Shown one piece after another: positions 16,330 through 28,456 of a stretch of 64,000 bases of DNA. The stretch lies in contig CAZVJY010000001.1 of assembly GCA_964626685.1 (NCBI GenBank), forward strand, positions 7,683 to 71,682. Reading direction: 5' to 3'. The number at the start of each line of letters is the position of its first letter. The first letter of the stretch is position 1. The notes below the pieces were generated by a model. It was not told the origin of the DNA, did no database searches, and saw only the letters and a list, made by a program, of their open reading frames with translations. The position numbers were made by a program, and so were the translations under genes. This DNA comes from an uncultured Flavobacteriaceae bacterium (GTDB taxonomy: Bacteria > Bacteroidota > Bacteroidia > NS11-12g > UBA955).

Positions 16330-18342
16330 TTATTGCCTGCTTCGGGCATAAAAGCGGTGCATAGCCCAAACGTGTGGTAAACTCAGGCAAGCCAAGAAAA
16401 CAAAGAAAACTGAAATCCAATGATTATTTAACCATGGCAATACACCTTTATAAACAAGCAAAAACAACAACATGAGCAACAGCAACGCACCCATTGTGAA
16501 TGGAAGTGCCTTACGAAACAAGGTTATACCTGCTGCCCCCATCCCTTTTTGCAAATGCGACCAACCGTTCAGGCTGTGCTGACCTATAAAATACAGCCCA
16601 AAAGCAGAAAGCAAGGGCAACTGTATGCCTATTACGAGCATTAGCAGACTCCAAATAACATTAGGCTTTTTCTCAAACAATGCCCAAATAAGTGTTGCCA
16701 AAATCAATACATATACTAAATTCCCTACAGGAATAGTCCCAGCAATAGCCACGCCCATTCCTTCAATCACAGCCATTGCTTCCACGGGGTGCGAAAACAG
16801 GATGATGCCAAGTATACCCGTCCCCCATAAAAACGACTTCAGGTGGCGGTATTGGCTAATTTGCCACTCCTGAATATCCGACTGTCCGAAATGAAAAGCG
16901 GAATACCCTAGAAACAAAGCCATTGCAATTACAGGCTGCAGCCACCAAAGCAGGAGATACAGCAACATAATTCCCAGGTATTTTGCAATAAATACTGGTT
17001 CAGGTCTTCCCTCTACCCTCCGCGTCTCCAGTAAATAATCCAGTGCGCCATGGGGAATTCCTACAATAAACAGCCCTACCGAAAGCAAAGCCCACTGCAG
17101 TGGAACAAAAACAGCAGGAAACAAGGCATAAGCAAACCACAGCAACAGAGACAGCAACGTTAGCATGATAGGCTTTGAAATGGCTGGCGGATTGTATCTG
17201 AGATCTTGTCTAAGAGCACCTAAAAAAGGGCGAAACGGCAAGCTCAGCAGGATACCCGCATCCTGAAAAAAGGAGGTTTTCTCATCCAGAAACTGAAGGA
17301 TTCGCGGGGTGCTGTTTCTTCTGAATAATTGCTGGAATATAGGCTTACCCCTGCTTGGGCTTGTAGCGAGAATCCAAAGTAGCAGGCGATCATAGAATTT
17401 GAAGCGCACAGCATTAAAGTCAGTAGTAAAAAACTGTTTGTCCTTTAACTGTGTGGTTATTTCAACGGCCTGCCTGTGCATGTTTTTAAACGCATATCCT
17501 GTTCCGGGCTTAATCGCGCCTGCCCTGCTTCCCAGTCGGACCACCCCTTGCAATTCCTTGACTTCAAGCAGAGCAGAACACATGGGAATGCAACCGGTCT
17601 CTGTTTCCAGAATCTGTGCATTTCCAAAATGCTGCTGTATATAATTCTCCAGCACCGGCGCAGCTTCCTGTTCGGTTATCTTATTTACCCCAAAACGGGT
17701 AAGCTCCACGAGCGCTTTTCTTTCAGATAAGGGAAGCACATACATAAACTGGGTGGCACCCTGTTGTTCAACACCAAAATCCATCATATCCATGGAATCA
17801 GTATTCTCAATGGGGTGCTCAGGTTCAATCATGTATCCGATAAATGATTGAAACAGGCTGCTTTCATTGGGTTTTGGAGCCGAAAAACCGGCAGGCCTGC
17901 TATCGAATACACGGGATGCTATATAGGAGCCGATACCGGTAAACACTACCACACCCGAATCGTCCGTGGCAATGGATGTAACCGCGGCTTTGACCAGCTC
18001 TATGCCATTGCGCGCGGCCAGGGATTGCATGGCATCCTGCATTTGCATCCCTGATATGTAATGGTACTGAAGGGGTTTAAGCGGTGTTTCAGCGCCTCTG
18101 TCGATACGCAGATGATTCCATGTTTTTTGAATTAGCCCTTGACAATCCTGCACAATATCGTCTTCGGGATTTGCCCAGAAACAAAAAGTTTTGTGGCTCA
18201 ATGATTCGAAATCAGTATCCACAAGCACCACTTTCTTTCCGGCGAGTAAACCTGCCTTTTCCATCCGCATAAGCAGCAGTGTGGCAGAAGCACCGGCACC
18301 GGCGAAGAGATAATCACAGTTTATGTGGCTTTTTTTCATCAT
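16330..18342 (-). CDS. Fusion protein: lycopene beta-cyclase (CrtY family, N-terminal ~380 aa) plus a Brp/Blh-family beta-carotene 15,15'-dioxygenase membrane domain (C-terminal ~290 aa)
   Basis: The N-terminus DYLFAGAGASATLLLMRMEKAG is the FAD-binding fold of CrtY, and FMYVLPLSERKALVELTRFG resembles the CrtY FVYxLPLS region. The C-terminal half has more than 7 TM helices with conserved His/Asp (GIPHGALDYLLE, HFGQSD, HPVEA) as in Blh. It lies 65 bp downstream of the rhodopsin gene on the same strand. Confidence 0.7.
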   Translation of the reverse strand: MMKKSHINCDYLFAGAGASATLLLMRMEKAGLLAGKKVVLVDTDFESLSHKTFCFWANPEDDIVQDCQGLIQKTWNHLRIDRGAETPLKPLQYHYISGMQMQDAMQSLAARNGIELVKAAVTSIATDDSGVVVFTGIGSYIASRVFDSRPAGFSAPKPNESSLFQSFIGYMIEPEHPIENTDSMDMMDFGVEQQGATQFMYVLPLSERKALVELTRFGVNKITEQEAAPVLENYIQQHFGNAQILETETGCIPMCSALLEVKELQGVVRLGSRAGAIKPGTGYAFKNMHRQAVEITTQLKDKQFFTTDFNAVRFKFYDRLLLWILATSPSRGKPIFQQLFRRNSTPRILQFLDEKTSFFQDAGILLSLPFRPFLGALRQDLRYNPPAISKPIMLTLLSLLLWFAYALFPAVFVPLQWALLSVGLFIVGIPHGALDYLLETRRVEGRPEPVFIAKYLGIMLLYLLLWWLQPVIAMALFLGYSAFHFGQSDIQEWQISQYRHLKSFLWGTGILGIILFSHPVEAMAVIEGMGVAIAGTIPVGNLVYVLILATLIWALFEKKPNVIWSLLMLVIGIQLPLLSAFGLYFIGQHSLNGWSHLQKGMGAAGITLFRKALPFTMGALLLLMLLFLLVYKGVLPWLNNHWISVFFVFLACLSLPHVWAMHRFYARSRQ

Positions 18343-18407
18343 TTTGAGCTTAAAAAAAGGGGTTCATGATTGCATCAGAACCCCTTTTTCGTAATGAGTG
18401 TATTGAA

Positions 18408-19133
18408 TTAGTCTTCGCTTCTGCTCAGGGCATATACAACCAGACCAAATCCGATTTTGTTAACGGCATCACCAATGTTGTAGATGATGTCCATGTTCAG
18501 GTTCCAGTTCTTGCAGAACTCATACCACTGACCATCGGCAGTACCTACCAGGTAACCCAAGGGATAAATACCCCATCCGATAACAACAAATTTCAACAAA
18601 GAATCAATGGCTTTCTGCACAGCAGGGCTGCTGGCTTTGGACAGCTGGGCAACTTCGCCTTTCCATACCATCCAAACAATCCAGAAATAAGCCAGACCTG
18701 AAACCAGACCCCAGAAGGCAGCCTGATTGCGGGCAACTGCTTCACCCCAGTAGCCAGTAACCAGCATGATTACAGAGGCGAGGATGAGTTTCCACAACAG
18801 ACCTACTTTGGCACCCGCCTTTTTAGTAATGAGGTAGAATTCTACGCACATCAAAGGCACAGTCAGCAACCAGTCCACATAGCGAAAGAATACGGGAGAT
18901 TCTCCACCGGTTTCGAGGTTGTAGCCACGCATGTAGTAGTAGTGCACAGCTGCAATGAAGGTAATAATACCGGAAACAAGAACAGAAGTTCTCCAGTCTT
19001 TTGAGGTGTTACCCAATTCAAAGAAGAAGAACACAGAAGCGGCCATCATGGCCATGGTGCCGATGAAAAACGTAAATGCTACGTAGTTGTCGGCTGCGAT
19101 GACGTTAGACGTCAATAGGTTGAAATGTTCCAT
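18408..19133 (-). CDS. Proteorhodopsin-type microbial rhodopsin, predicted light-driven proton pump (DTE motif)
   Basis: Seven TM helices. Helix C RYVDWLLTVPLMCVEFYLI carries the D/T/E proton acceptor and donor positions, and helix G IIYNIGDAVNKIGFGLVVY carries the retinal Schiff-base Lys and counter-ion Asp. Met at the PR-105 tuning position suggests green absorption as in flavobacterial PRs. The start was set at MEHFNLL. Confidence 0.85.
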   Translation of the reverse strand: MEHFNLLTSNVIAADNYVAFTFFIGTMAMMAASVFFFFELGNTSKDWRTSVLVSGIITFIAAVHYYYMRGYNLETGGESPVFFRYVDWLLTVPLMCVEFYLITKKAGAKVGLLWKLILASVIMLVTGYWGEAVARNQAAFWGLVSGLAYFWIVWMVWKGEVAQLSKASSPAVQKAIDSLLKFVVIGWGIYPLGYLVGTADGQWYEFCKNWNLNMDIIYNIGDAVNKIGFGLVVYALSRSED

Positions 19134-19658
19134 ACGTGTATGTATTTTAATGATGTACACAAATGAACATAGAAAAGATAATTGTGTTTGCCTTGTGCAG
19201 ATTTTTTTTGTATATTACGAACCATCTTCCACAATTATCAACACAAAAAAGAGCACAATAAATTCAGATAATCGAATCCGATAAGAGCATTATAATTGAC
19301 TTTCAATGACTTTTACCTCGGAAATAAAACCCAAAACAGGGCGGATGATTGTTTTTCAAAATGTGGATAACTATACTTGACAAAAAGTCGAATTTATCAT
19401 GTTCATGCATCAGAAAGTAGTGATAATGATATTTTTGAATTTCAGTAAAAAACAAAGAAAATGGCGATGTAAAAACCACCATTGCAATCACACAGGCACC
19501 TATTTTACTAAAAAAATTGATATGCTTTTAACAACACACACGACATAAAGCAATGAAAAGACCCTGTGCTACACATTCTGAAACTTGGCTCCAAGACGCT
19601 ATCAGCACCGGTTAAAACTAAAAACAAGGTTACGCGGATTAAAATATAAATTCGCAGC

Positions 19659-22600
19659 ATGGGGTTTAGCTGCCAAAATCAAGAGTGCTCAATGGCCATC
19701 GCAAAGGCCGTGTTCCCTTCGGAGATAAAAAATTGTCCTGTTTGCAGTCTGCCATTGTTCGATCCTACAGCCTTGAATGATGAAGAAATTCAATTAATAC
19801 GGGAATTGCCCTATGTCATTGCCTACCCCCTGAGACAAGCCCTGCAGGAAAAGCACGCATGGACAAAAATAAACCTGCTGAAGGATACATTTCTTAATTA
19901 TCTGAAATACACTGGCCTGATCACGGCTTCTGAATTTTTTAACAGCCAGTTTAAGGACAGAAATATGGTTGCTCTTTTTCACAAAACCATTGCAGAGCCC
20001 TCCTTTGGCTCTTGGAATGAGTTTATCAGAGAAACCATCAAGTACCTAAAAGAAGAACAACACACCTTTTTCGACACAGGAATTTTCAACCACTACGAAC
20101 GGGTTGAAACCGGCAAAAGAAGAAAATTATTCAATGGAGAAATTGAATACTCTGATATCAACGGCGATATTCAATTGAAGAGACAGGAGGCCACCGGCAT
20201 TGGAATGCTCATCAACTTCCGCAACAGATACCTGGGCCATGGGCTAACACTGAATGAAATTACATCTCAAAAAATCTGGCAAGAATACTATCCAATCTTT
20301 AAATACCTGCTAACAGACTTAATCCAATCAAAACCCTTTCCAATGTTCAAACATGAGCACGGAGAAACATACCTGCTAAAGTCAGCTGAAATTCACATTG
20401 TGGAGAAAGGACAGCAACAATCCGCAAGGGTATGGATTGAAAACCAAAATAATGAACAGTTTGATATTCTGCCTTTTTATATCGTCCCAGGCGAAGTGTC
20501 TGTTTCTAAAGAAGACAAGGAACAAATATTCATTTACGAATCCCACACCGGTAAAACCATCAAATTTTTCAGCCCGGAAGGCACCGAAAAACAGACCTCA
20601 GGCAAGGTGCTGGAAAGGCTTAACCTGCTACTCAGGGAAAAACGGAATGAAACAAGCTATTCTTCCGGAGAATTTGACAGGAACACCTTTATCAATCGTA
20701 TTGCAGCCGAAAACAAGCTGGTTATTGAAACCCTCATCAATGAAAAGAAAGTACTTCCGGAGGTTTACGTAAATCGCAAAGACCTGGAGGCAAAACTCCA
20801 TGAATGGATTGGTGCCCAAGCAAGCATCTTTTTTATAGCGGCAGAGGCTGGTAGCGGAAAAACCAATCTGCTTGCTGAAATCCAACGGCAATACAACAAA
20901 CTTGACCTGCCCTGCCTGCTAATCAGGGCTGGCAGAATGGAAAAACAAACACTGACCGAGCAAATAGCCTTTGTTTTAAACATCAACCCAACGACCGGAC
21001 TGGAAGAATATCAGGCTATAGCCGGCAGCCAGGACAAACCCACTGTTGTTTTGATTGATGGACTCAATGAGGCAATTAATGCAGAAGAAGTGTGGGAGGA
21101 AATCCTTGCTATAAGCAAAATTTTTAATGGCGGGACTTTAAAATTTGTAGTCACCAGCCGGGCCAATACAGGGGCCGATATTCATCGTTTTAAATTAAAT
21201 GAAAGTGACCAGGAATTGCTGTTTGGCGATAATCCGGAAGGGGAAACCGGCCTTCATGCCTACATCAATTGGTTAACCGCCATGAACATGGTTGAATTGC
21301 AAGAAGCCTGGAATATTTACACCAAGAAAAACAAAAACAAATTCAACCCACGATTTACCTTTTCGGATATTGCAGATTTTGACCGTTCCATTTACAATCA
21401 AATCAACAACCCTCTGGTATTGAGGCTTTTCCTTGAAACCTACCATCAAAAAACGCTGCCAAAAAACAGCAACAAATACCTCAACATCTGGCGTGACTGG
21501 CTTGAATCCTTTTCTGCAAAAGAACGTGTATTCATGGAGCTGCTGGTAGAAGCTGTATGGGAAAAAGGAGAAAATGAACTGTTACTGGACGATTTGATCA
21601 ATTCGGATAGGCTGAAACCTTACTTTAACTCAGATGTTCAAAATGATCCATATCCCCGTCTAAAAAATCTGGGATGGCTGAGCCGTTACACCAAAGACTT
21701 GCACGGCTATGTTTCATTCACAGTTGAAGGTGCGTTGCTTTACATGCTGGGCGAGTTCCTTCGAAAACAGAAACCTGCCATAACTCTTAATAGTGCGCTG
21801 ACCTTACTGAGTAAAGGAACAAAACTTAAACGGTTTGCATTGGAAGCCATGCTTTGCGAACAGGCTTTGGATGACAATTTTACCCTAACAACGGAACTCA
21901 TTGATGCCGGCAACAATCATCTGGAAGTTTGCATTAAACCTTCACTGCTTTACTTAAAAACCTTCGGGGTGTCAAAAACCCTGAATAAATTACTGCAGCA
22001 AGGAACAGCAAACGACTGGAAAGTAATGCTTGAAATAGACAGCAACCTCTCAAAATTGCGGCTGCATACCTTGCGGAAAGAATTCCTCACTGAATTAATG
22101 AAGCAAAATGAATTCAGGCATATAGAATCTGTATGGCTCGGGTTAATTGCAATCATCACCTATTTTGACAAAAAACAGGCTGTTCAATACCTAGCCGAAA
22201 TTCACAAATCACAAGCCCTTATTGAAAGCGATCACAACCTGTTAAGTTTACTTGGAAAGTGTGTTGCAAAATATGGCAAATACGACCAGGCACTTGTATT
22301 TTATCACAAAAGTCTGGACATCAAAATGAAACTCCTGGGCGAAAACGACCCCTCGGTATCTGGATTGCTGAATAATATTGCCTTAGCACTTGTAAAAAAA
22401 GAAGAACTGGACAAAGCCTTGGAATTCTATCAGAAAAGCGTTGATTTAAAGTTAAAACGACTTGGAGGAATGCATCCTTCTCTGTCTGCTTCCTACAGCA
22501 ACATTGGTGCGGTGTGGCGAAAAAAAGGAGAATATGAGAAAGCCCTTTCCTATTACGAAAAGAGCATTTATATTAAGTTAAAAGTACTTGGCGAAGACAA

Positions 22601-23177
22601 CAATTCATTGGCACCCGTATACAATAATGTGGGTTTTTTATGGGCCGACCAAGGAAAATACGACCTGGCACTTGAATGGTACTCAAAAAGCCTGAAAATT
22701 AAAATAAAGAACTTTGGTACAGACCATTTTTCACTTGCCTCATCCTACAGAAACATAGGCTCTGCATGGCGAAAAAAAGGAGAGTATGACAAAGCTGTAG
22801 AATTTTACGAAAAGAGCCTTGACCTTAAAAAGAAATTCCTTGGCAACGACCATACAGATGTAGCAGATATCTTGTATTCTCTCGGAGATTGTTATCAGGC
22901 AACAAACCAGCATCCAAAAGCGATTGACCATTTTTCGGAAGCTTTTGAATTGCAAAAAAAGGGAAAACACCTATTGCGTATTGGAGAATGCCATGAATCA
23001 CTAAAAAATGCAAAAGAAGCGCTCAAATTTTATATTCTGGCAGCAGAGACATTTAAGAATGATCAGGAATTTACAATCAGTCACAATCTGACGCGAAGTT
23101 CAATTGAGAAAGCCATGCAGCTGTCCAAAGAACTGCAAAGTGAAAATGAATTGCCTGTTTGGATGCTCCAAAATTGA
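19659..23177 (+). CDS. STAND NTPase: N-terminal zinc ribbon plus unknown domain, a NACHT-type P-loop NTPase, and C-terminal TPR repeats
   Basis: CQNQEC...CPVC zinc ribbon. Walker A AAEAGSGKTNLL and the NACHT-type Walker B VVLIDGLNEA. The C-terminal ~350 aa are kinesin-light-chain-like TPR repeats (ALVFYHKSLDIKMKLLG, ALEFYQKSVDLKLKRLG, ALSYYEKSIYIKLKVLG, ALEWYSKSLKIKIKNFG, AVEFYEKSLDLKKKFLG). The gene is AT-rich. Confidence 0.75.
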   Translation: MGFSCQNQECSMAIAKAVFPSEIKNCPVCSLPLFDPTALNDEEIQLIRELPYVIAYPLRQALQEKHAWTKINLLKDTFLNYLKYTGLITASEFFNSQFKDRNMVALFHKTIAEPSFGSWNEFIRETIKYLKEEQHTFFDTGIFNHYERVETGKRRKLFNGEIEYSDINGDIQLKRQEATGIGMLINFRNRYLGHGLTLNEITSQKIWQEYYPIFKYLLTDLIQSKPFPMFKHEHGETYLLKSAEIHIVEKGQQQSARVWIENQNNEQFDILPFYIVPGEVSVSKEDKEQIFIYESHTGKTIKFFSPEGTEKQTSGKVLERLNLLLREKRNETSYSSGEFDRNTFINRIAAENKLVIETLINEKKVLPEVYVNRKDLEAKLHEWIGAQASIFFIAAEAGSGKTNLLAEIQRQYNKLDLPCLLIRAGRMEKQTLTEQIAFVLNINPTTGLEEYQAIAGSQDKPTVVLIDGLNEAINAEEVWEEILAISKIFNGGTLKFVVTSRANTGADIHRFKLNESDQELLFGDNPEGETGLHAYINWLTAMNMVELQEAWNIYTKKNKNKFNPRFTFSDIADFDRSIYNQINNPLVLRLFLETYHQKTLPKNSNKYLNIWRDWLESFSAKERVFMELLVEAVWEKGENELLLDDLINSDRLKPYFNSDVQNDPYPRLKNLGWLSRYTKDLHGYVSFTVEGALLYMLGEFLRKQKPAITLNSALTLLSKGTKLKRFALEAMLCEQALDDNFTLTTELIDAGNNHLEVCIKPSLLYLKTFGVSKTLNKLLQQGTANDWKVMLEIDSNLSKLRLHTLRKEFLTELMKQNEFRHIESVWLGLIAIITYFDKKQAVQYLAEIHKSQALIESDHNLLSLLGKCVAKYGKYDQALVFYHKSLDIKMKLLGENDPSVSGLLNNIALALVKKEELDKALEFYQKSVDLKLKRLGGMHPSLSASYSNIGAVWRKKGEYEKALSYYEKSIYIKLKVLGEDNNSLAPVYNNVGFLWADQGKYDLALEWYSKSLKIKIKNFGTDHFSLASSYRNIGSAWRKKGEYDKAVEFYEKSLDLKKKFLGNDHTDVADILYSLGDCYQATNQHPKAIDHFSEAFELQKKGKHLLRIGECHESLKNAKEALKFYILAAETFKNDQEFTISHNLTRSSIEKAMQLSKELQSENELPVWMLQN

Positions 23178-23402
23178 TTTTGTTCTCATCGGTGGATTTC
23201 AATAACATCTGAATCTTTCAAAAAATTGCCTTTTCTTTTTATACCACACTTTGAAAGAAAAGCATGTACATAATCAAAAGTGATAGATACAAATTGGTTT
23301 CTTACTGGCTCTGTCAATGTAATTCCAGGTAACCACTTTGTTTAGGGTAATTCAAAACCGATAACTGATTCCTTTTGCAACTTTCAAAGCCATAGATTAT
23401 CA

Positions 23403-24254
23403 TTGAACGTTTTTAAAATGAATACGCTTTCCAAAAATTTTTGCCATCCAATTTACTTTCGCATTTGCACGCTTGTAGCCCTCATAACAGTAAACATAAA
23501 CCTTAATGCACAAATCCTAAATATTGACAGTGAACTGCAGGATTCCCTGACCAAAACGCGCTATTTGCTCCTTTCAGGATCTTTCAGCCACGACAAGCAA
23601 AAGAGAAGTATAAATGATGCTGAATGTTACGTGGAGATGCTGCAAAAAGCCAAAAACCGCTATGCAGGTGTTTTTGTAGGGCAGCTAAATACAGTGTTAT
23701 CCGGCAGGGAGATTGTGCAGAATGAAGGCTTTTTCCAATTGCGATACCGTGATCTGGATACGCGAAAAACCAGCATGGAAGCGTATCTTCAGTATCAGTG
23801 GAATGGCTTATGGGGCATGCAGGAGCGCAAACTGGCAGGCATGAATGTGCGGCAGAAGGTGCTTGACAAAAAAAGCGGCGATTTTTACGTGGGGCTAGGC
23901 GGATTTTATGAAATGGAAACATGGAATTACAAAGGCGTTGAGGACACAAGTAAATACAAGCCGGGCACACCACCGGTTCAGCAAAACAGGCTGCGGGCGA
24001 ATAGCTATATAAAAGTTGCCAAGAAGCTATTCCGCAACTGTGATGTAATCGCAGAGTCATTCATACAGGCCAATGCGTTTTCACTGGCCAATAACCCTTC
24101 GGTGCGCTGGTTTTTACTGGGTCGAATCAATTACAACCTGACCGAAAAATTACAGCTATCAGTTAATTATGACCACATATATAACCAAAGCCCGCCGGTT
24201 CCGGTAAAAAAACTATACGCAGGATATGCGTTTAGATTCAACGTGAAACTATAA
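23403..24254 (+). CDS. Hypothetical outer-membrane beta-barrel-like protein with a signal peptide
   Basis: An N-terminal signal (LVALITVNINLNAQ), alternating amphipathic strands, and a C-terminal YAFRFNVKL ending in an aromatic-rich last strand. Confidence 0.4.
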   Translation: MNVFKMNTLSKNFCHPIYFRICTLVALITVNINLNAQILNIDSELQDSLTKTRYLLLSGSFSHDKQKRSINDAECYVEMLQKAKNRYAGVFVGQLNTVLSGREIVQNEGFFQLRYRDLDTRKTSMEAYLQYQWNGLWGMQERKLAGMNVRQKVLDKKSGDFYVGLGGFYEMETWNYKGVEDTSKYKPGTPPVQQNRLRANSYIKVAKKLFRNCDVIAESFIQANAFSLANNPSVRWFLLGRINYNLTEKLQLSVNYDHIYNQSPPVPVKKLYAGYAFRFNVKL

Positions 24255-24258
24255 CTTT

Positions 24259-24555
24259 ATGAAGCAATTACTTACGCTGACCATTCTGTTTTACCGGTGG
24301 GCCATTAAACCATTTTACAAACGCACTTGCCTTTTTTGTGTCAGTTGTTCACAGGAAGTCCTCAACGAAGCCAGACAGAATGGCTTCCGAGCAGGAATTA
24401 ACACGCTGAATACAAGGTTGAAGTACTGCAGGCCGGGTTTTCTTTGGGGTAAAAATCCAGTAACAGGCAAACAAAGACTTATCTTCCCGGATGGAAAATA
24501 CCTGGAAGAGAAAGAAATATCATTTGAAATCCTCAACCTCATACAAAACCCATAA
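24259..24555 (+). CDS. yidD: YidD-like membrane protein insertion efficiency factor (haemolytic domain, PF01809-like) with a ~25-aa C-terminal extension
   Basis: ILFYRWAIKPFYKRTCLFCVSCSQEVLNEARQNGFRAGINTLNTRLKYC matches the YidD pattern Y-x3-I-x-P-x5-C-x-F-x2-[ST]-C-S...G...KC. Confidence 0.6.
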   Translation: MKQLLTLTILFYRWAIKPFYKRTCLFCVSCSQEVLNEARQNGFRAGINTLNTRLKYCRPGFLWGKNPVTGKQRLIFPDGKYLEEKEISFEILNLIQNP

Positions 24556-24585
24556 TCACCCTTATCATAAAACCATTTATTTAAT

Positions 24586-27500
24586 ATGAAAATTCCTTTT
24601 TCATTACCCGGAAGTTTTGAGAAAACCATACATGAGCTGGCCAGAACCAGAGAAAAAGCAGCCAAACAAAAATACCTGCTGGATCTGGGCGAAAGCCTGG
24701 TAATGCACCTATGTTCCTTTATACTTGGAGAATACAAGGAAAGCAAGCTTGTATCTATAGAACTGGAAAAATCGTTTTTAAAGAATAATAAAAATATTAG
24801 CTTCGGCATTTATCTTGGATGGCTGAGGGAATCCTCAAAATTTTTATACAAATCCAATACCCCATCCCGCATCCACAGTCTCATTCATGGAAGTAACGAA
24901 TGGAGCGAAGTATGGAAATTCATCAAAGGTTTTGAAGCGCTAAAATCGCAGATTGACAAAGGTGCTTCTGAAGGATTTGAAACCATGGTTCAGGACGCTC
25001 TTCGCAACAACCCATCCAAGGTGAACATTATTCAGTTTTTTGACACTTTTATACAATTGCGGAACCGGGTTGCCCATCCCCATAAAGAAGTGAACGGAAT
25101 CAACATTAGCTGGCCATTTTCCGAAGATTATTTCGACACACTGAACCCCCTGCTTGAAGGGGCACTGCAAAGAACCATGCAGGAACTTAATCAGATTTGG
25201 GAATACAGAAAATACACCATTGAAAGCAATGAGGATGGCATTCTCCTGCTGTTGAACGAAGACTCCGGAGAATTTGAAGAATTTGCGGTAAAAACAGACA
25301 TCACCGATGGCATAAAAGTATTTGCCAATGCCGAAAACAATATTCTTATCTCTGACTGGAAAGTTTTACTGAAAGCCGGAGACAAGGCATTGGAAGAAAT
25401 ACGAAAAGAGGAAGAAACACTTCGAAACAAAGCCAGCATTGAAGAACTGAAAGAATCTATCAAAGCTGCATTGGATGACGGCCAAATCAGCCTGGAAGAA
25501 TTTAACTTTTTTGAATCGCTGGGTAAAACCAAACTGGGGCTGAACAGGCAAGACCTCAAAAATCTCATTATGGAGGTTGCTTCGTCCATGCAGATTGAAG
25601 ATCCATTTCCTGAAGTAGACAAGCGATTTGTTGCCGCAATTGATGAAGCCATCCGAAACAAAACCTACAACGACTTTATTCTAAAACTTACAGGACAACA
25701 GTATGGGGTGGATGCCGAACAGTTCGAAAAGGTTTTTGCGGAGAGAGCAGCTGCGCTGGGTGCAGATCCGGAAGACGTGAAAAAAAACAGAATCCTTCAG
25801 TTCAGCCATGATGAACTTAAAACCTTTCAGGGCCTGCTCATGGCATGGCAGTGGCTGGGGAATATTTATTTGTTCAACAAAAACAACACTGAGAGCCAGT
25901 ATAAAATTACCGGCGACTCTCATGAATATGGCACAAAAGAATACTGGCACAGGAATGCGTTTCAGGCAGTAGATCAATTTGTGCAATCAAGGCTTGCAAA
26001 AATCGCATTAACAGATGACACCATATGGGACACAAAGCAAAACAACTGGCAAATAGGGGTAATGACAAGTTATGCATGGTGCTCTGCCTTTCCCAAGGAT
26101 GCAGTTTCCCTGAGAATTCTGTCATTGCACTTCAGTCTGTATGCAGACAGATGCGCCGCAATTGGTTTTCTGCCTGACTGGAAAGATTACAAACTGCTGG
26201 AAAAGTATGGATTAATGCTGGATGTGTTTTGCAGACACCTAAAAGATTTTACAGTTGAGTATGAAAATGAGCTAAGGAAATACAACAACCTTTTTCTATG
26301 GGATGGCGTGAACAACAAGCCCCTACATTCCTTTAGTGAGATGATGCGGTCTAATGAATGGTATTTTCAGCATATGTATAACTTTGACCAGATTCAGTTC
26401 TATTATTCAGGAAAAGAAATAGAATCCAATCCGGCAATACTGCTGGAAGGATTTGACATTGTTTTCAACCTGTTTGGCGGATTGTTTGAAAGAGTAAATC
26501 GGGATTATTTAAACCTGTTAAATGACACAACCGAAATAGAAACCAAAAAAGAAACAGTAGTTAAAAAACTGCAAGGACTTATCGCCACCCTCGCTAATTT
26601 TGGATTAACAACAACGGAGGGAGCTATTGCTACCAGCAACCCCGATGAAGTCATCATTCCGGAGGACAATTCCGAGCACGGCACCCATGGCCTAAAAGGC
26701 AACAGCCAACTGGGTTATTACGCTATTGAATTTAAAGAAAAAATCAAAGGATATCCGGTCTTGCTTGTCTTCCAGTTCAGGCAAAATTATATATCAGGGA
26801 AACTAAACTTCAACACCATTATTTCGGTTGCCGGCGATTCGGAAAACACCATTCATGTGCCGGCTGCACATGTATTGGAGAAATTAACAGAACATGCTTT
26901 TACAGGTTGTAAAGCGCACCAATACAAAGGCAAATTTGTTTTAAACTGCGAAGTAGAGGATATCATTGATTTTGATCCAAACCCCATTGTATTGGTTTTT
27001 ATGGAAAAATTCACAGCATTGCTTGCGGAATATAAACTCGATGTTCTGGGTATCAGCATTCACGACCCTCTTTTTGAGAAAGAAAAAGAGCAAATCAATG
27101 AAAAGCTGAATGCACTGCAAGTAAATATAGCTCCTCATTTTTCAAACCAGATATATCAGGAAAGAAACATCATGAAGGGTAAACGTTACATTGATTACGT
27201 TTACTCAAATAAAAAAGTAACACATTACCTGGGATGGGGCAATGAGCTTACACAAAATGGCCTTAAGGACATATTGATTTTCCACGTAAAAGACACCATT
27301 AAGGGAGCTCATTTGGTGCAGCTGATGCAGGATTTTGCAAAAGACCGACCGGAATGGGAATATCGTGAAACCGATAGCGCAGAAAGAGAAGAGGCAATAT
27401 GGCTGGGTGAATGTATGCGTGAACAGGAATTGACGGCATCCTCGGAATACAATCGCAATTATGCTGCCAGGCATGCCGTTATTGATAACCCTAAAAACTA

Positions 27501-27933
27501 CTGGTGTGCCAAAGTGAAAGACAACAAACAGTGGTTTCAGGTAAAACTGCGTGAAATTGCTGAAATAACTGCCATCAAGCTGCAGGGATCTCCAAATCAA
27601 AACGCATTCATTCAGCAATTTGACCTGATGCATTCCATCAATGGAAAAGAATGGAAAACCCTCCACGCCATAAGTGGATTAGACCCCTCAAATACCGAAA
27701 AGGAAATTGTTCTTGAAAAGCCGGTTAAAGCCGTTTTCATAAGAATTATACCGACAGTGTTCAGTGGCTATCCAGCCTTAAGAATAGATGTAAAAAAGCG
27801 TAACCTCACAGCTGGAGCTGCCGAATTGTGCTATCGATGCCAGAGGAACGCAGTCGAAGACAATTCTATGCCCAACATTGAAAAGCAAATTGAGGTGTTT
27901 TTGCCATTGTTCAGAAACCATATTGGCTTTTAA
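24586..27933 (+). CDS. Large multidomain protein: N-terminal HEPN-like region (Rx4H motif), central coiled-coil, and a C-terminal F5/8 type C (discoidin) domain
   Basis: FIQLRNRVAHPHKEV carries the R-N-x3-H motif of HEPN and Abi_2-type domains. The C-terminus WFQVKLREIAEITAIKLQGSPNQNAFIQQFDLMHSINGKEWKTL...VFIRIIP is typical of discoidin domains. No signal peptide. Confidence 0.55.
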   Translation: MKIPFSLPGSFEKTIHELARTREKAAKQKYLLDLGESLVMHLCSFILGEYKESKLVSIELEKSFLKNNKNISFGIYLGWLRESSKFLYKSNTPSRIHSLIHGSNEWSEVWKFIKGFEALKSQIDKGASEGFETMVQDALRNNPSKVNIIQFFDTFIQLRNRVAHPHKEVNGINISWPFSEDYFDTLNPLLEGALQRTMQELNQIWEYRKYTIESNEDGILLLLNEDSGEFEEFAVKTDITDGIKVFANAENNILISDWKVLLKAGDKALEEIRKEEETLRNKASIEELKESIKAALDDGQISLEEFNFFESLGKTKLGLNRQDLKNLIMEVASSMQIEDPFPEVDKRFVAAIDEAIRNKTYNDFILKLTGQQYGVDAEQFEKVFAERAAALGADPEDVKKNRILQFSHDELKTFQGLLMAWQWLGNIYLFNKNNTESQYKITGDSHEYGTKEYWHRNAFQAVDQFVQSRLAKIALTDDTIWDTKQNNWQIGVMTSYAWCSAFPKDAVSLRILSLHFSLYADRCAAIGFLPDWKDYKLLEKYGLMLDVFCRHLKDFTVEYENELRKYNNLFLWDGVNNKPLHSFSEMMRSNEWYFQHMYNFDQIQFYYSGKEIESNPAILLEGFDIVFNLFGGLFERVNRDYLNLLNDTTEIETKKETVVKKLQGLIATLANFGLTTTEGAIATSNPDEVIIPEDNSEHGTHGLKGNSQLGYYAIEFKEKIKGYPVLLVFQFRQNYISGKLNFNTIISVAGDSENTIHVPAAHVLEKLTEHAFTGCKAHQYKGKFVLNCEVEDIIDFDPNPIVLVFMEKFTALLAEYKLDVLGISIHDPLFEKEKEQINEKLNALQVNIAPHFSNQIYQERNIMKGKRYIDYVYSNKKVTHYLGWGNELTQNGLKDILIFHVKDTIKGAHLVQLMQDFAKDRPEWEYRETDSAEREEAIWLGECMREQELTASSEYNRNYAARHAVIDNPKNYWCAKVKDNKQWFQVKLREIAEITAIKLQGSPNQNAFIQQFDLMHSINGKEWKTLHAISGLDPSNTEKEIVLEKPVKAVFIRIIPTVFSGYPALRIDVKKRNLTAGAAELCYRCQRNAVEDNSMPNIEKQIEVFLPLFRNHIGF

Positions 27934-27970
27934 TCCCACTTAAGGATTCCATAAAGGGCTGAACAACCCT

Positions 27971-28456
27971 TTATCTTTTTTTCAATAGAATATATTGATC
28001 CCAGAAAGCCACTGCCCTGCTTAACTCTTCCGGCTCCATACCATTGTGGGGAAAGGCAGGTGCATAACCACCGGGAAACACCGTTATTAAAGTGCAAACA
28101 TCGTTATCTCTGCTACAAATGACGGTAACCAGTGATGTGGAAGGAAGTTCTTCCGCTTCTGCGTACTCCACAAAAAGTCCGTTTCGGTTCTCCTTAACTA
28201 TTTTTTGGTCAGCATATTCAGCTTTAAAACCCAAACCTAGACTACCACATGCCCCAATATCTGACAAATTATAGGTATGTGCCTCCCTTCCGGCAGCCTG
28301 CAGAATAATATCATGCGGATTCCTTTTCTCAAGGGTAAAGAGCAAATCATCTACCGCAGGAAAAACCTCCGGATAAAAACAACTTCCTGCTTTTTCCTGT
28401 TTTCCGAAATGGATGGCGATGTGCTGCCTGGTTTCAGAGCTCAGCAAATACTTCAT
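27971..28456 (-). CDS. Hypothetical protein, 161 aa
   Basis: Complete ORF. Its start overlaps the stop of the upstream 465-aa ORF by 4 bp (translational coupling). No motif recognised. Confidence 0.4.
   Translation of the reverse strand: MKYLLSSETRQHIAIHFGKQEKAGSCFYPEVFPAVDDLLFTLEKRNPHDIILQAAGREAHTYNLSDIGACGSLGLGFKAEYADQKIVKENRNGLFVEYAEAEELPSTSLVTVICSRDNDVCTLITVFPGGYAPAFPHNGMEPEELSRAVAFWDQYILLKKR

Follow-up and report, generated by a model that had tools for sequence, protein, structure and literature searches.

HEPN RNases require a composite active site formed by paired domains. The animal antiviral STAND-like proteins SAMD9 and SAMD9L combine a SAM domain, a nucleic-acid-targeting domain, a P-loop NTPase, and TPRs. 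In Avs proteins, trigger-induced oligomerization assembles the effector (Lee et al. 2026, PMC13581612). The bNACHT survey (Kibby et al., preprint 10.1101/2022.07.19.500537) covers bacterial NACHT/NLR-related proteins with enzymatic N-terminal effectors and TPR C-termini of "antigen-receptor type", and it lists HEPN RNases, zinc ribbons, and TPRs among their domains. N-terminal HEPN-STAND proteins and "STAND-ATPase, TPR, S1" fusions of Swt1/Abi2-like HEPN have also been described, with Npun_F6454, MED222_16016, and Desac_1927 named as examples, and HEPN-STAND fusions are predicted to be RNases in abortive defense (Anantharaman et al. 2013, PMC3710099). This type of architecture (HEPN-STAND and HEPN-NACHT fusions) is thus already predicted in the literature, and for that reason our analysis leaves the general picture unchanged.

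The window (the whole 64,000-nucleotide stretch of DNA analyzed here) contains a candidate of this type, carried by the genome of a freshwater Flavobacteriales. Judged from sequence, the reading that we favor on balance is a self-contained NLR-like STAND switch, in which a HEPN-type RNase effector would be freed by a trigger bound to the TPRs. The first-pass annotation had described one STAND gene, laid out as an N-terminal module, a STAND NTPase, and a C-terminal TPR array. Both the layout and the gene are confirmed: a single ORF of 1172 aa spans 19659-23177 on the + strand, and its ATG start position is kept across homologs. Compared with a 77%-identical ortholog at locus L004, dN/dS is ~0.06-0.09 in all domains with dS not fully saturated (dS 1.1-2.2), which rules out a chance ORF and shows that the gene is functional. 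Promoter and terminator scans returned nothing exceeding chance. The features are as follows.

19659..23177, + strand: whole gene, with zinc ribbon (ZnR), HEPN-like domain, beta domain, NACHT-like STAND NTPase, helical arm, TPR array, and variable tail (1172 aa plus stop)
19659..19763, + strand: C4 zinc ribbon (aa 1-35; C5, C10, C26, C29), from the cysteine pattern and model strands
19764..20342, + strand: helical HEPN-like domain, predicted RNase effector (aa 36-228), from AF2, family conservation, sub-threshold HEPN matches, and compact Rx4H homologs
20127..20195, + strand: beta-hairpin insert inside the helical domain (aa 157-179), from AF2; missing from compact relatives
20208..20243, + strand: LINFRNRYLGHG motif (aa 184-195), predicted catalytic Rx5H, from family conservation
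20343..20597, + strand: beta-rich domain (aa 229-313), from AF2 at lower confidence (pLDDT 58-74)
20598..20753, + strand: helical linker ahead of the NTPase (aa 314-365), from AF2
20754..21218, + strand: NACHT-like STAND P-loop NTPase core (aa 366-520), from motifs and HMM searches
20838-20867, + strand: Walker A motif AAEAGSGKTN (aa 394-403), with K401 as the Walker A lysine
21045-21071, + strand: Walker B motif VVLIDGLNE (aa 463-471)
21144-21167, + strand: NACHT-typical TSR motif FVVTSRAN (aa 496-503)
21219..22238, + strand: helical arm joining the NTPase to the repeats (aa 521-860), the best-conserved part relative to L004 (84% identity)
22239..22868, + strand: five 42-residue kinesin-light-chain-type TPR units (aa 861-1070), presumed ligand-binding sensor, from Pfam and the repeat register
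22869..23177, + strand: degenerate TPRs and C-terminal tail (aa 1071-1172) plus stop codon, hypervariable relative to L004

The helical domain is probably an unannotated, divergent RNase effector of the HEPN superfamily. The first-pass annotation had seen no recognizable motif in the N-terminal region and had left the effector type undetermined; Pfam is also blank here, with no match to aa 1-380 of the window protein even at E<=10, and neither NCBIfam nor PADLOC finds a known domain in this segment. The structure modeling that it had recommended was informative: the ~330-aa region before the NTPase splits into a helical domain, modeled confidently by AF2 (aa 36-228; pLDDT 91.8, pTM 0.88) as eight helices and one hairpin insert, and then the small beta-rich domain, for which Foldseek gives weak similarity only, to eS4 and LytTR beta folds. 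Within the helical domain, the motif R188-N-R-Y-L-G-H194 precedes a helix at 200-223 and has the form Rx5H (F-R-N-x-x-x-G-H-G). The pattern F-R-N-[RK]-x-x-G-H is present in about 100 family sequences. In compact homologs that head other NACHT-TPR proteins (hmmsearch E 1e-9 to 1e-7), the motif has the canonical form FRNxYAHG (Rx4H). The adjoining 1115-aa protein bears LRNRVAH, and its domain family aligns with the helical-domain family at 95.4% hhalign probability (E 1.7e-8), in an alignment that comprises the N-terminal half and ends before the motif.

Sub-threshold profile matches point in the same direction. Among Pfam models, various members match HEPN_MAE_28990 (best 0.0019), HEPN_RiboL-PSP (0.012), Csm6 HEPN (0.009), and DUF4209. 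In PADLOC, seven Csx1, CARF_HEPN, or Csm6 models match P0201 (best 1.8e-4), and Csx1 matches a compact version across aa 22-160. The only models that match the helical domain recurrently, in at least eight family members, are HEPN models (4 from Pfam and 8 from PADLOC), and these matches always cover the motif and the last helix.

The helical domain could instead be a non-catalytic adaptor, sensor, or oligomerization module, with killing carried out elsewhere, for instance by a nearby CorA-like membrane protein, although we consider this unlikely. Every HMM match is sub-threshold and covers little beyond the motif, and neither Pfam nor PADLOC gives a threshold-level match to any recognized HEPN family. 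Foldseek likewise matches the domain to no solved HEPN structure. PDB sequence searches with three family profiles or single sequences returned nothing relevant, and two further large-database searches for a bridge to annotated HEPN families gave unannotated relatives only. In addition, a CorA-like gene lies <=10 kb away at 13 of 48 loci, with u161, u283, and a DUF4407 cassette as further recurrent neighbors of homologs. However, the immediate neighbors of homologs are mostly non-recurrent, and non-Bacteroidota or distant members have none of the recurrent neighbor genes. R188, N189, and H194 vary little or not at all in the family alignment while the rest of the domain diverges, which points to catalysis. 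Many relatives carry a tandem duplication of the domain with the motif retained in both copies, a pattern consistent with the HEPN active site being dimeric. Finally, unrelated architectures also begin with this domain, and it exists as a 198-aa standalone version, as is typical of effector domains.

The N-terminal cap is exchangeable. The C4 zinc ribbon that had been proposed is borne out by two knuckles, C5-x4-C10 and C26-x2-C29 (CQNQEC...CPVC), and by the short beta strands modeled there by AF2. Its cysteine pattern is kept in about 65 homologs; Pfam zinc-ribbon models do not match the window protein. Elsewhere in the family, a SAM domain, another HEPN-like copy, or a small beta module replaces the ribbon. 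The interchangeable cap (zinc ribbon, SAM, or second HEPN copy) probably helps effectors to pair, promotes higher-order assembly, or contributes to RNA binding.

The NTPase carries the motifs of the NACHT clade. STAND/NACHT proteins have a Walker B of the form hhhhDGhDE and a downstream TSR(P)-type motif. In the window protein, the Walker A, Walker B, and TSR motifs support the NACHT module of the first-pass annotation, and HMM searches support the label loosely: Pfam NACHT (PF05729) reaches 15.5 bits, below its cut-off of 26.7, and NPHP3_N (PF24883) scores 25.6 bits against a cut-off of 24.8 on a fragment and 23.6 on the whole protein. Several homologs have precomputed NACHT (PF05729) matches.

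The C-terminal region combines regular repeats with a variable end. Pfam TPR_12 scores 173.8 bits over the TPR region, where five clean units of 42 aa in register are followed by degenerate ones, in agreement with the five or more TPRs expected. The repeat number ranges from 5 to 19 or more across members. Fungal NLRs have recombining DNA-level repeats; no DNA-level tandem repeats were found within this TPR array. The C-terminal tail is hypervariable relative to L004 (pN 0.405), and synteny with L004 breaks within this segment, at nt 22875.

The distribution and the neighborhoods of the family suggest a role in conflict. Hundreds of clusters make up the family, with no annotation beyond "hypothetical" or "TPR protein" and no functional assignment for any of them. 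Its close clade comes mostly from freshwater MAGs of Bacteroidota, where it is chromosomal and patchily distributed, with more than one copy in some genomes. Homologs neighbor AbiE, HsdR, reverse transcriptase, PDDEXK, WYL, other NACHT-TPR, and MoxR-vWA genes. In PADLOC, the NTPase is closest to Avs2, whose models (about 1500 positions) give the only Avs matches, local ones of 40.2 and 27.1 bits over aa 366-501, the stronger spanning about 120 residues. Together with the defense-type neighbors and the multiple or tandem copies, this supports a conflict role. Of the proposed Avs-like character, therefore, the effector/STAND/TPR layout stands, while membership in a defined Avs family does not: the PADLOC check gave no full-length match of the window protein to Avs1-5. 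The refuting case, a LuxR/MalT-type regulator, is also not what we find, because Pfam, NCBIfam, and PADLOC detect no HTH or other DNA-binding family in the window protein and because the family, with its patchy spread and occasional multiple copies, does not look like a housekeeping one. The protein is a plausible candidate for a single-protein anti-phage sensor, with the antiviral role inferred from its architecture and the mixed neighborhoods of its homologs.

A STAND switch outside defense is improbable in our view, but it draws on the genomic setting. Such a resident chromosomal gene would serve cellular regulation, for example stress- or signal-dependent RNA turnover. The STAND gene opens a 10.7-kb low-GC stretch (GC 0.402 over 19161-29900; the left and right flanks have 0.467 and 0.461). 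The low GC of the proposed AT-rich island is therefore real, if modest, but its status as a mobile island is not borne out, and the stretch keeps its position in a related species (L004). A mobile island at tRNA-Phe was rejected, as there is no repeat of the tRNA 3' end and no integrase among the neighboring ORFs scanned. Rfam finds two tRNAs and nothing else, and no family relatives were found in IMG/VR, INPHARED (phage), or PLSDB (plasmid). This absence of mobile-element signatures agrees with a regulatory role, as do purifying selection, the canonical protein-scaffold type of the TPRs, the position of the STAND gene beside rhodopsin/blh genes in two species (those of the window and of L004), and the distant family members that sit amid housekeeping genes. 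Against it stand the patchy spread, with 67 loci among 185,579 species representatives in a scan seeded with close-clade patterns, and the paralogs or tandem arrays of family genes in certain genomes. The swapped N-terminal caps, varying repeat number, and hypervariable tail also argue against it, as does the adjacency of homologs to conflict systems.

It is very unlikely that the STAND gene is part of a larger multi-gene system of a Bacteroidota hotspot, acting with u283, a CorA-like + 161-aa pair, and/or a DUF4407-OmpA-DUF350 cassette: recurrent neighbor families do span Flavobacteriales, Chitinophagaceae, and other Bacteroidota at just 25-45% identity, and u283 (a 283-aa beta-barrel-like protein) lies 226 bp downstream of the STAND gene on the same strand in the window, but order, strand, and distance vary from locus to locus with no family as a consistent immediate neighbor, L004 retains the STAND gene without u283, the YidD-like gene, and the 1115-aa gene, and all such genes are missing from non-Bacteroidota members. 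An obligatory partner gene was rejected on neighbor statistics. As a separate observation, some homologs have immediately upstream a membrane protein, c19, that bears "IRNKTRGHG"; the match of c19 to the domain HMM is not significant.

Under the favored reading of a self-contained switch, the TPR array and the variable C-terminal tail would bind the trigger, most likely a phage protein. Binding would lift autoinhibition, and the NTPase would then drive oligomerization. This would unite at least two HEPN-like domains, whose Rx5H motifs may form a composite active site. RNA cleavage could then arrest either the invader or the cell itself, in the manner of abortive infection. Since HEPN RNases need pairing, the family, if this reading is right, would be a clean model of how STAND oligomerization activates an effector.

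If the assignment holds, a probable RNase function would be given to a domain left unannotated by all current libraries, one that heads several hundred large STAND proteins, mainly from uncultured freshwater Bacteroidota. A HEPN-armed NLR-like candidate would also join a class whose characterized members use DNases, NADases, or proteases. The recurrent neighbor families around homologs point to a conserved variable hotspot of Bacteroidota that catalogs of defense systems barely cover. A broader reading, which we find doubtful, would join these threads. The N-terminal domain would be a widespread, previously unrecognized HEPN clade with hairpin Rx5H and compact Rx4H forms, serving as a modular "warhead" on Bacteroidota NACHT-TPR, discoidin-domain, and standalone chassis. 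NTPase-driven pairing would activate it in the NACHT-TPR proteins, and SAM or zinc-ribbon caps would nucleate higher-order assemblies, giving a bacterial layout parallel to that of animal SAMD9. The conserved hotspot, which also contains the CorA-like/beta-barrel module and the DUF4407-OmpA-DUF350 cassette, would in that case be a Bacteroidota immune island not yet charted, with more new systems inside it.

The window protein can be compared with several known systems. Like Avs proteins such as Avs2, it joins an N-terminal effector to a STAND NTPase and a TPR-like C-terminal sensor in a single chain. However, its sensor is built of short, regular kinesin-light-chain-type TPRs, whereas that of Avs is large and irregular, and its effector is HEPN-like rather than of the Mrr or Cap4 type. 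With bNACHT proteins, it shares the tripartite order of effector, NACHT-like NTPase, and superstructure-forming repeats, including a NACHT-type Walker A, a DGhxE Walker B, and a TSR motif, but it falls below the Pfam NACHT gathering threshold and its effector matches no HEPN model at threshold.

SAM-bearing family members share with SAMD9 and SAMD9L the order SAM, RNA-targeting domain, STAND NTPase, and TPR, as a layout analogy only; the window protein itself bears a zinc ribbon and no SAM domain. HEPN dimers and tandem pairs (Csm6/Csx1, Cas13, HepT, and RNase L/Ire1 KEN) resemble the helical domain in being all-alpha with R-[N]-x(4-5)-H before the last helix, and the family also has tandem duplicates and marginal Csx1/Csm6 profile similarity at the motif. 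Against these systems, there is no threshold-level sequence or Foldseek similarity, and the proposed trigger is NTPase-driven oligomerization rather than cyclic oligoadenylate, crRNA, or kinase dimerization. Relative to the HEPN-STAND fusions (PMC3710099), compared by description, the window protein has an Rx5H motif with a 23-residue beta-hairpin insert, the domain is capped in its family by a zinc ribbon or SAM, and a beta-rich domain follows in place of a recognizable S1 or cold-shock domain. What they share is the N-terminal HEPN-type domain with Rx4-6H, the STAND NTPase, and the TPRs.

The gene at 19659-23177 (+) is a single open reading frame of 1172 amino acids, whose ATG start codon and first residues align with the starts of its homologs. 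We show that its domain order and motifs are those of a NACHT-TPR protein, as the first-pass annotation had described it, with the zinc-ribbon cysteines, both Walker motifs and the TPR units now located. The N-terminal boundaries below come from an AF2 model of aa 1-380 based on the family alignment (pLDDT 81, pTM 0.76).

C5, C10, C26 and C29: zinc-ribbon cysteines, in the first part of the AF2 model
aa 41-223: eight-helix domain, with a beta-hairpin insert at aa 157-179
aa 229-313: beta-rich domain, modelled at lower confidence, followed by a helical linker
aa 394-403: Walker A, AAEAGSGKTN
aa 463-471: Walker B, VVLIDGLNE
aa 496-503: FVVTSRAN, typical of NACHT
aa 861-1070: five 42-residue kinesin-light-chain-type TPR units, in register, with degenerate units after them

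The C-terminus matches Pfam TPR_12 at 173.8 bits. HMM support for the "NACHT" label lies at or below threshold: Pfam NACHT scores 15.5 bits (cut-off 26.7) and NPHP3_N 25.6 on a fragment (cut-off 24.8). There are no Pfam matches to aa 1-380, even with E ≤ 10 allowed.

An ortholog, conserved synteny and purifying selection mark this as a genuine gene. Synteny with a Flavobacteriales MAG (locus L004) extends over ~11.0-35.6 kb of the window, and that MAG carries a STAND ortholog in the matching position, adjoining a rhodopsin gene 99% identical to that of the window. The two STAND proteins share 76.6% identity. We show from this sequence comparison that the gene is under purifying selection, with dN/dS at ~0.06-0.09 in all computable domains and dS saturated or nearly so; only the final ~100 residues depart from this (pN 0.405). 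DNA-level synteny is lost within the gene, at nt 22875 (aa ~1072), and returns only at 29930, at the thioesterase gene. The neighbouring features are as follows.

16330-19160 (-): proteorhodopsin-type gene (Bac_rhodopsin, E 5e-40) and CrtY-Blh, a fused lycopene cyclase / beta-carotene 15,15'-dioxygenase gene, divergent and directly upstream
23403-24254 (+): u283, a 283-aa protein with a signal peptide and a beta-barrel look
24259-24555 (+): YidD-like gene (Pfam YidD, E 5e-9)
24586-27933 (+): 1115-aa protein with a discoidin domain (Pfam F5/8 type C) at aa 949-1058
27971-28456 (-): u161, a soluble 161-aa protein
28453-29850 (-): CorA-like 465-aa protein with two C-terminal TM helices and weak PADLOC CorA matches (E 3e-6)
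32364-36387 (+): five-gene cassette encoding DUF4407, a DUF4407-like membrane protein, an OmpA-domain protein, a ~520-550-aa membrane protein and DUF350

Window 22875-29930 corresponds to L004 13217-15455, where u283, the YidD-like gene and the 1115-aa protein gene have no counterparts. The CorA-like protein and u161 are 43-45% identical between the two genomes, against 88-99% for the flanking genes. On sequence comparison, this interval resembles a slot for variable cassettes, with its left edge inside the sensor's C-terminal tail. The rhodopsin gene and CrtY-Blh form a compact light-harvesting pair, supplying retinal plus opsin; the neighbours of the rhodopsin gene are ~77% identical to their L004 counterparts.

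The first-pass annotation had also placed the gene in an AT-rich island. The low GC content stands (0.402 in 19161-29900 versus 0.46-0.47 on either side). No sign of island mobility emerged, with neither an integrase nor a repeat of the tRNA-Phe 3' end found within the window.

The eight-helix domain is likely to be HEPN-like and is predicted to be an RNase effector, a part of the protein to which no effector type had been assigned before. Its conserved core is LINFRNRYLGHG, in which R188, N189 and H194 vary little or not at all, and F-R-N-[RK]-x-x-G-H is found in ~100 family sequences. The motif is of the Rx5H type, has N following R and lies immediately ahead of the last long helix, which matches the arrangement that defines HEPN domains (PMC3710099). 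Modelled by itself, the domain reaches pLDDT 91.8 and pTM 0.88. Compact homologs have no hairpin and carry the canonical Rx4H. One group of these, with FRNxYAHG, forms the N-termini of further large NACHT-TPR proteins encoded at the loci retrieved (E 1e-9 to 1e-7 in hmmsearch). The other heads the discoidin-domain protein two genes downstream, whose N-terminal ~200 aa contain LRNRVAH within FIQLRNRVAHPH (R159-H164). The domain HMM matches this protein at E 0.008 and a relative in L032 at 1.9e-8; profile-profile comparison (hhalign) of its family with the STAND domain family gives 95.4% probability (E 1.7e-8), in an alignment spanning the N-terminal half of the domain only. The island thus holds two proteins armed with HEPN-like domains on different chassis.

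Marginal matches point the same way. When 58 family sequences were scanned against Pfam and 10 against PADLOC, the models recurring on this domain across members were HEPN models, always at the motif and last helix, and none reached threshold. From Pfam these were HEPN_MAE_28990 (E 0.0019, 0.024, 0.046), HEPN_RiboL-PSP (0.012, 0.036, 0.054) and Csm6 HEPN (0.009), with DUF4209 also marginal. One family protein (P0201) matched seven Csx1, CARF_HEPN or Csm6 models from PADLOC (best 1.8e-4), and a Csx1 model covers aa 22-160 of one compact version. Against a HEPN identity speak the absence of any threshold-level match, the absence of HEPN matches for the STAND protein itself, and Foldseek against PDB and BFVD as well as PDB sequence and profile searches, all of which returned nothing. 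In its favour, many relatives have the domain twice in tandem with the motif intact in each, as expected of a domain that builds its active site from a pair of copies.

A further point in favour is a standalone version of the domain: at L073 10001-11346 (P0210), the gene for a 198-aa protein shares 4 bp with the beginning of a calcineurin-like metallophosphatase gene, and this overlap suggests a two-gene module. At L016, L033 and L036 (e.g., L036 7510-9771), the STAND homolog is immediately preceded, in the same orientation, by the gene for a ~750-aa protein whose N-terminal half is multi-TM. Near its C-terminus, "YIRNKTRGHG" resembles the HEPN-like signature; the domain HMM is not significant.

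The family is large and its N-terminal cap is interchangeable. A query with aa 1-380 retrieved only 65 relatives, every one an unannotated metagenomic protein, and an exhaustive HMMER search with the family profile gave 701 cluster representatives at E ≤ 1e-3 (110 below 1e-30), mostly of 1100-2100 aa. The layout is identical in all five full-length relatives inspected, with 7 to 19 TPR_12 stretches. The cap is a zinc ribbon in ~65 retrieved proteins, SAM in 16 (Pfam SAM_1, SAM_2) and a second HEPN-like copy in several; in high-GC members it is a small "GFPxPDGxxVLD" beta module, and a Pro/Ala-rich linker comes next.

Scanning a single genome for each species turned up 67 loci, nearly all in freshwater Bacteroidota MAGs (Flavobacteriales, Crocinitomicaceae, Chitinophagaceae, Saprospiraceae, Cryomorphaceae), with at least two copies or tandem arrays in several genomes; the scan used close-clade peptide patterns and is therefore little informative on distant members. 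The IMG/VR, phage and plasmid collections searched yielded no relatives. Neighbourhoods are mixed and include AbiEii/AbiEi-like proteins, an HsdR-like helicase, reverse transcriptase, PDDEXK nucleases, DUF2357 with PDDEXK_7, WYL regulators, SbcC-like ATPases, other NACHT-TPR proteins and MoxR-vWA (DUF2201) pairs. Distant members lie among ordinary metabolic genes or beside another STAND gene. At many loci, several genes that neighbour it in the window turn up again no more than 10 kb from homologs, at only 25-45% identity and in shuffled order: those for the CorA-like protein (13 of 48 loci), u161, u283 and the 4HBT thioesterase, and the DUF4407 cassette with its 523-aa protein. The immediate neighbours are mostly non-recurrent, the sole repeat being a 187-aa gene directly downstream (6/41), so we take the STAND gene to be a stand-alone module occupying a conserved variable hotspot, rather than a subunit of an obligate operon. 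A role as a LuxR/MalT-type regulator, which the first-pass annotation named as the alternative, is rejected, since Pfam, NCBIfam and PADLOC scans gave no DNA-binding family and the distribution is patchy.

Several of these neighbours form recurrent groups. The genes for u283, u161 and the CorA-like protein recur near STAND homologs at many Bacteroidota loci (also L014, L026, L029, L033, L036, L059, L070). u283 precedes the CorA-like gene on one strand at five loci (L027, L029, L033, L036, L070), u161 follows the latter in ~9, and L014 and L070 have the three side by side; they may form an uncharacterised module. The DUF4407 cassette, found at ~10 loci (among them L015, L025, L026, L043, L045 and L064) and often followed by the thioesterase, is covered by no PADLOC family; its OmpA-domain protein has weak ZorB/MotB matches there, and the cassette may be a housekeeping or a conflict system. 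YidD-like genes also occur in the STAND-bearing islands of L002 (16997-17314), L019 and L028, an unusual site for a membrane-insertion accessory factor. MoxR-type AAA (AAA_5) and DUF2201 vWA/metallopeptidase pairs, with a third gene of 907 aa or larger, lie close to STAND homologs (L033, L034, L036, L045, L070) and resemble the vWA-MoxR ternary conflict systems of Bacteroidetes (PMC7159879).

Established STAND and HEPN biology suggests how the protein might act. The TPR array and variable tail would bind a trigger, upon which the NTPase would oligomerise, as in the tetramerisation of Avs (PMC13581612). The N-terminal HEPN-like domains could then pair, in line with the HEPN composite active site (PMC3710099), and cleave RNA, with abortive infection or arrested growth as the outcome. 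The cap, whether zinc ribbon or SAM, may help pairing or RNA binding. We lean modestly towards this chain as a whole, and the protein stays a candidate antiviral sensor.

The proposed Avs-like membership was not borne out: the only PADLOC hit is a 40-bit local match to the NTPase core, which leaves the protein outside the defined Avs families. Its architecture is nevertheless of a known kind. Proteins joining an N-terminal HEPN domain to STAND, and HEPN fusions of the "STAND-ATPase, TPR, S1" kind, were noted in 2013 (PMC3710099), HEPN is listed as an enzymatic effector for bacterial NACHT proteins (10.1101/2022.07.19.500537), and a 2026 survey puts the number of STAND clades at 589 and associates 198 of them with defence, the latter mostly carrying TPR-like sensors (PMC13581612). 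An experimentally characterised HEPN-NACHT protein was absent from the literature searched. What is new is that the predicted effector belongs to a HEPN-like clade without annotation in Pfam, NCBIfam or PADLOC, one that includes an Rx5H form bearing a hairpin insert, has interchangeable N-terminal caps and is reused on other chassis in the same island.
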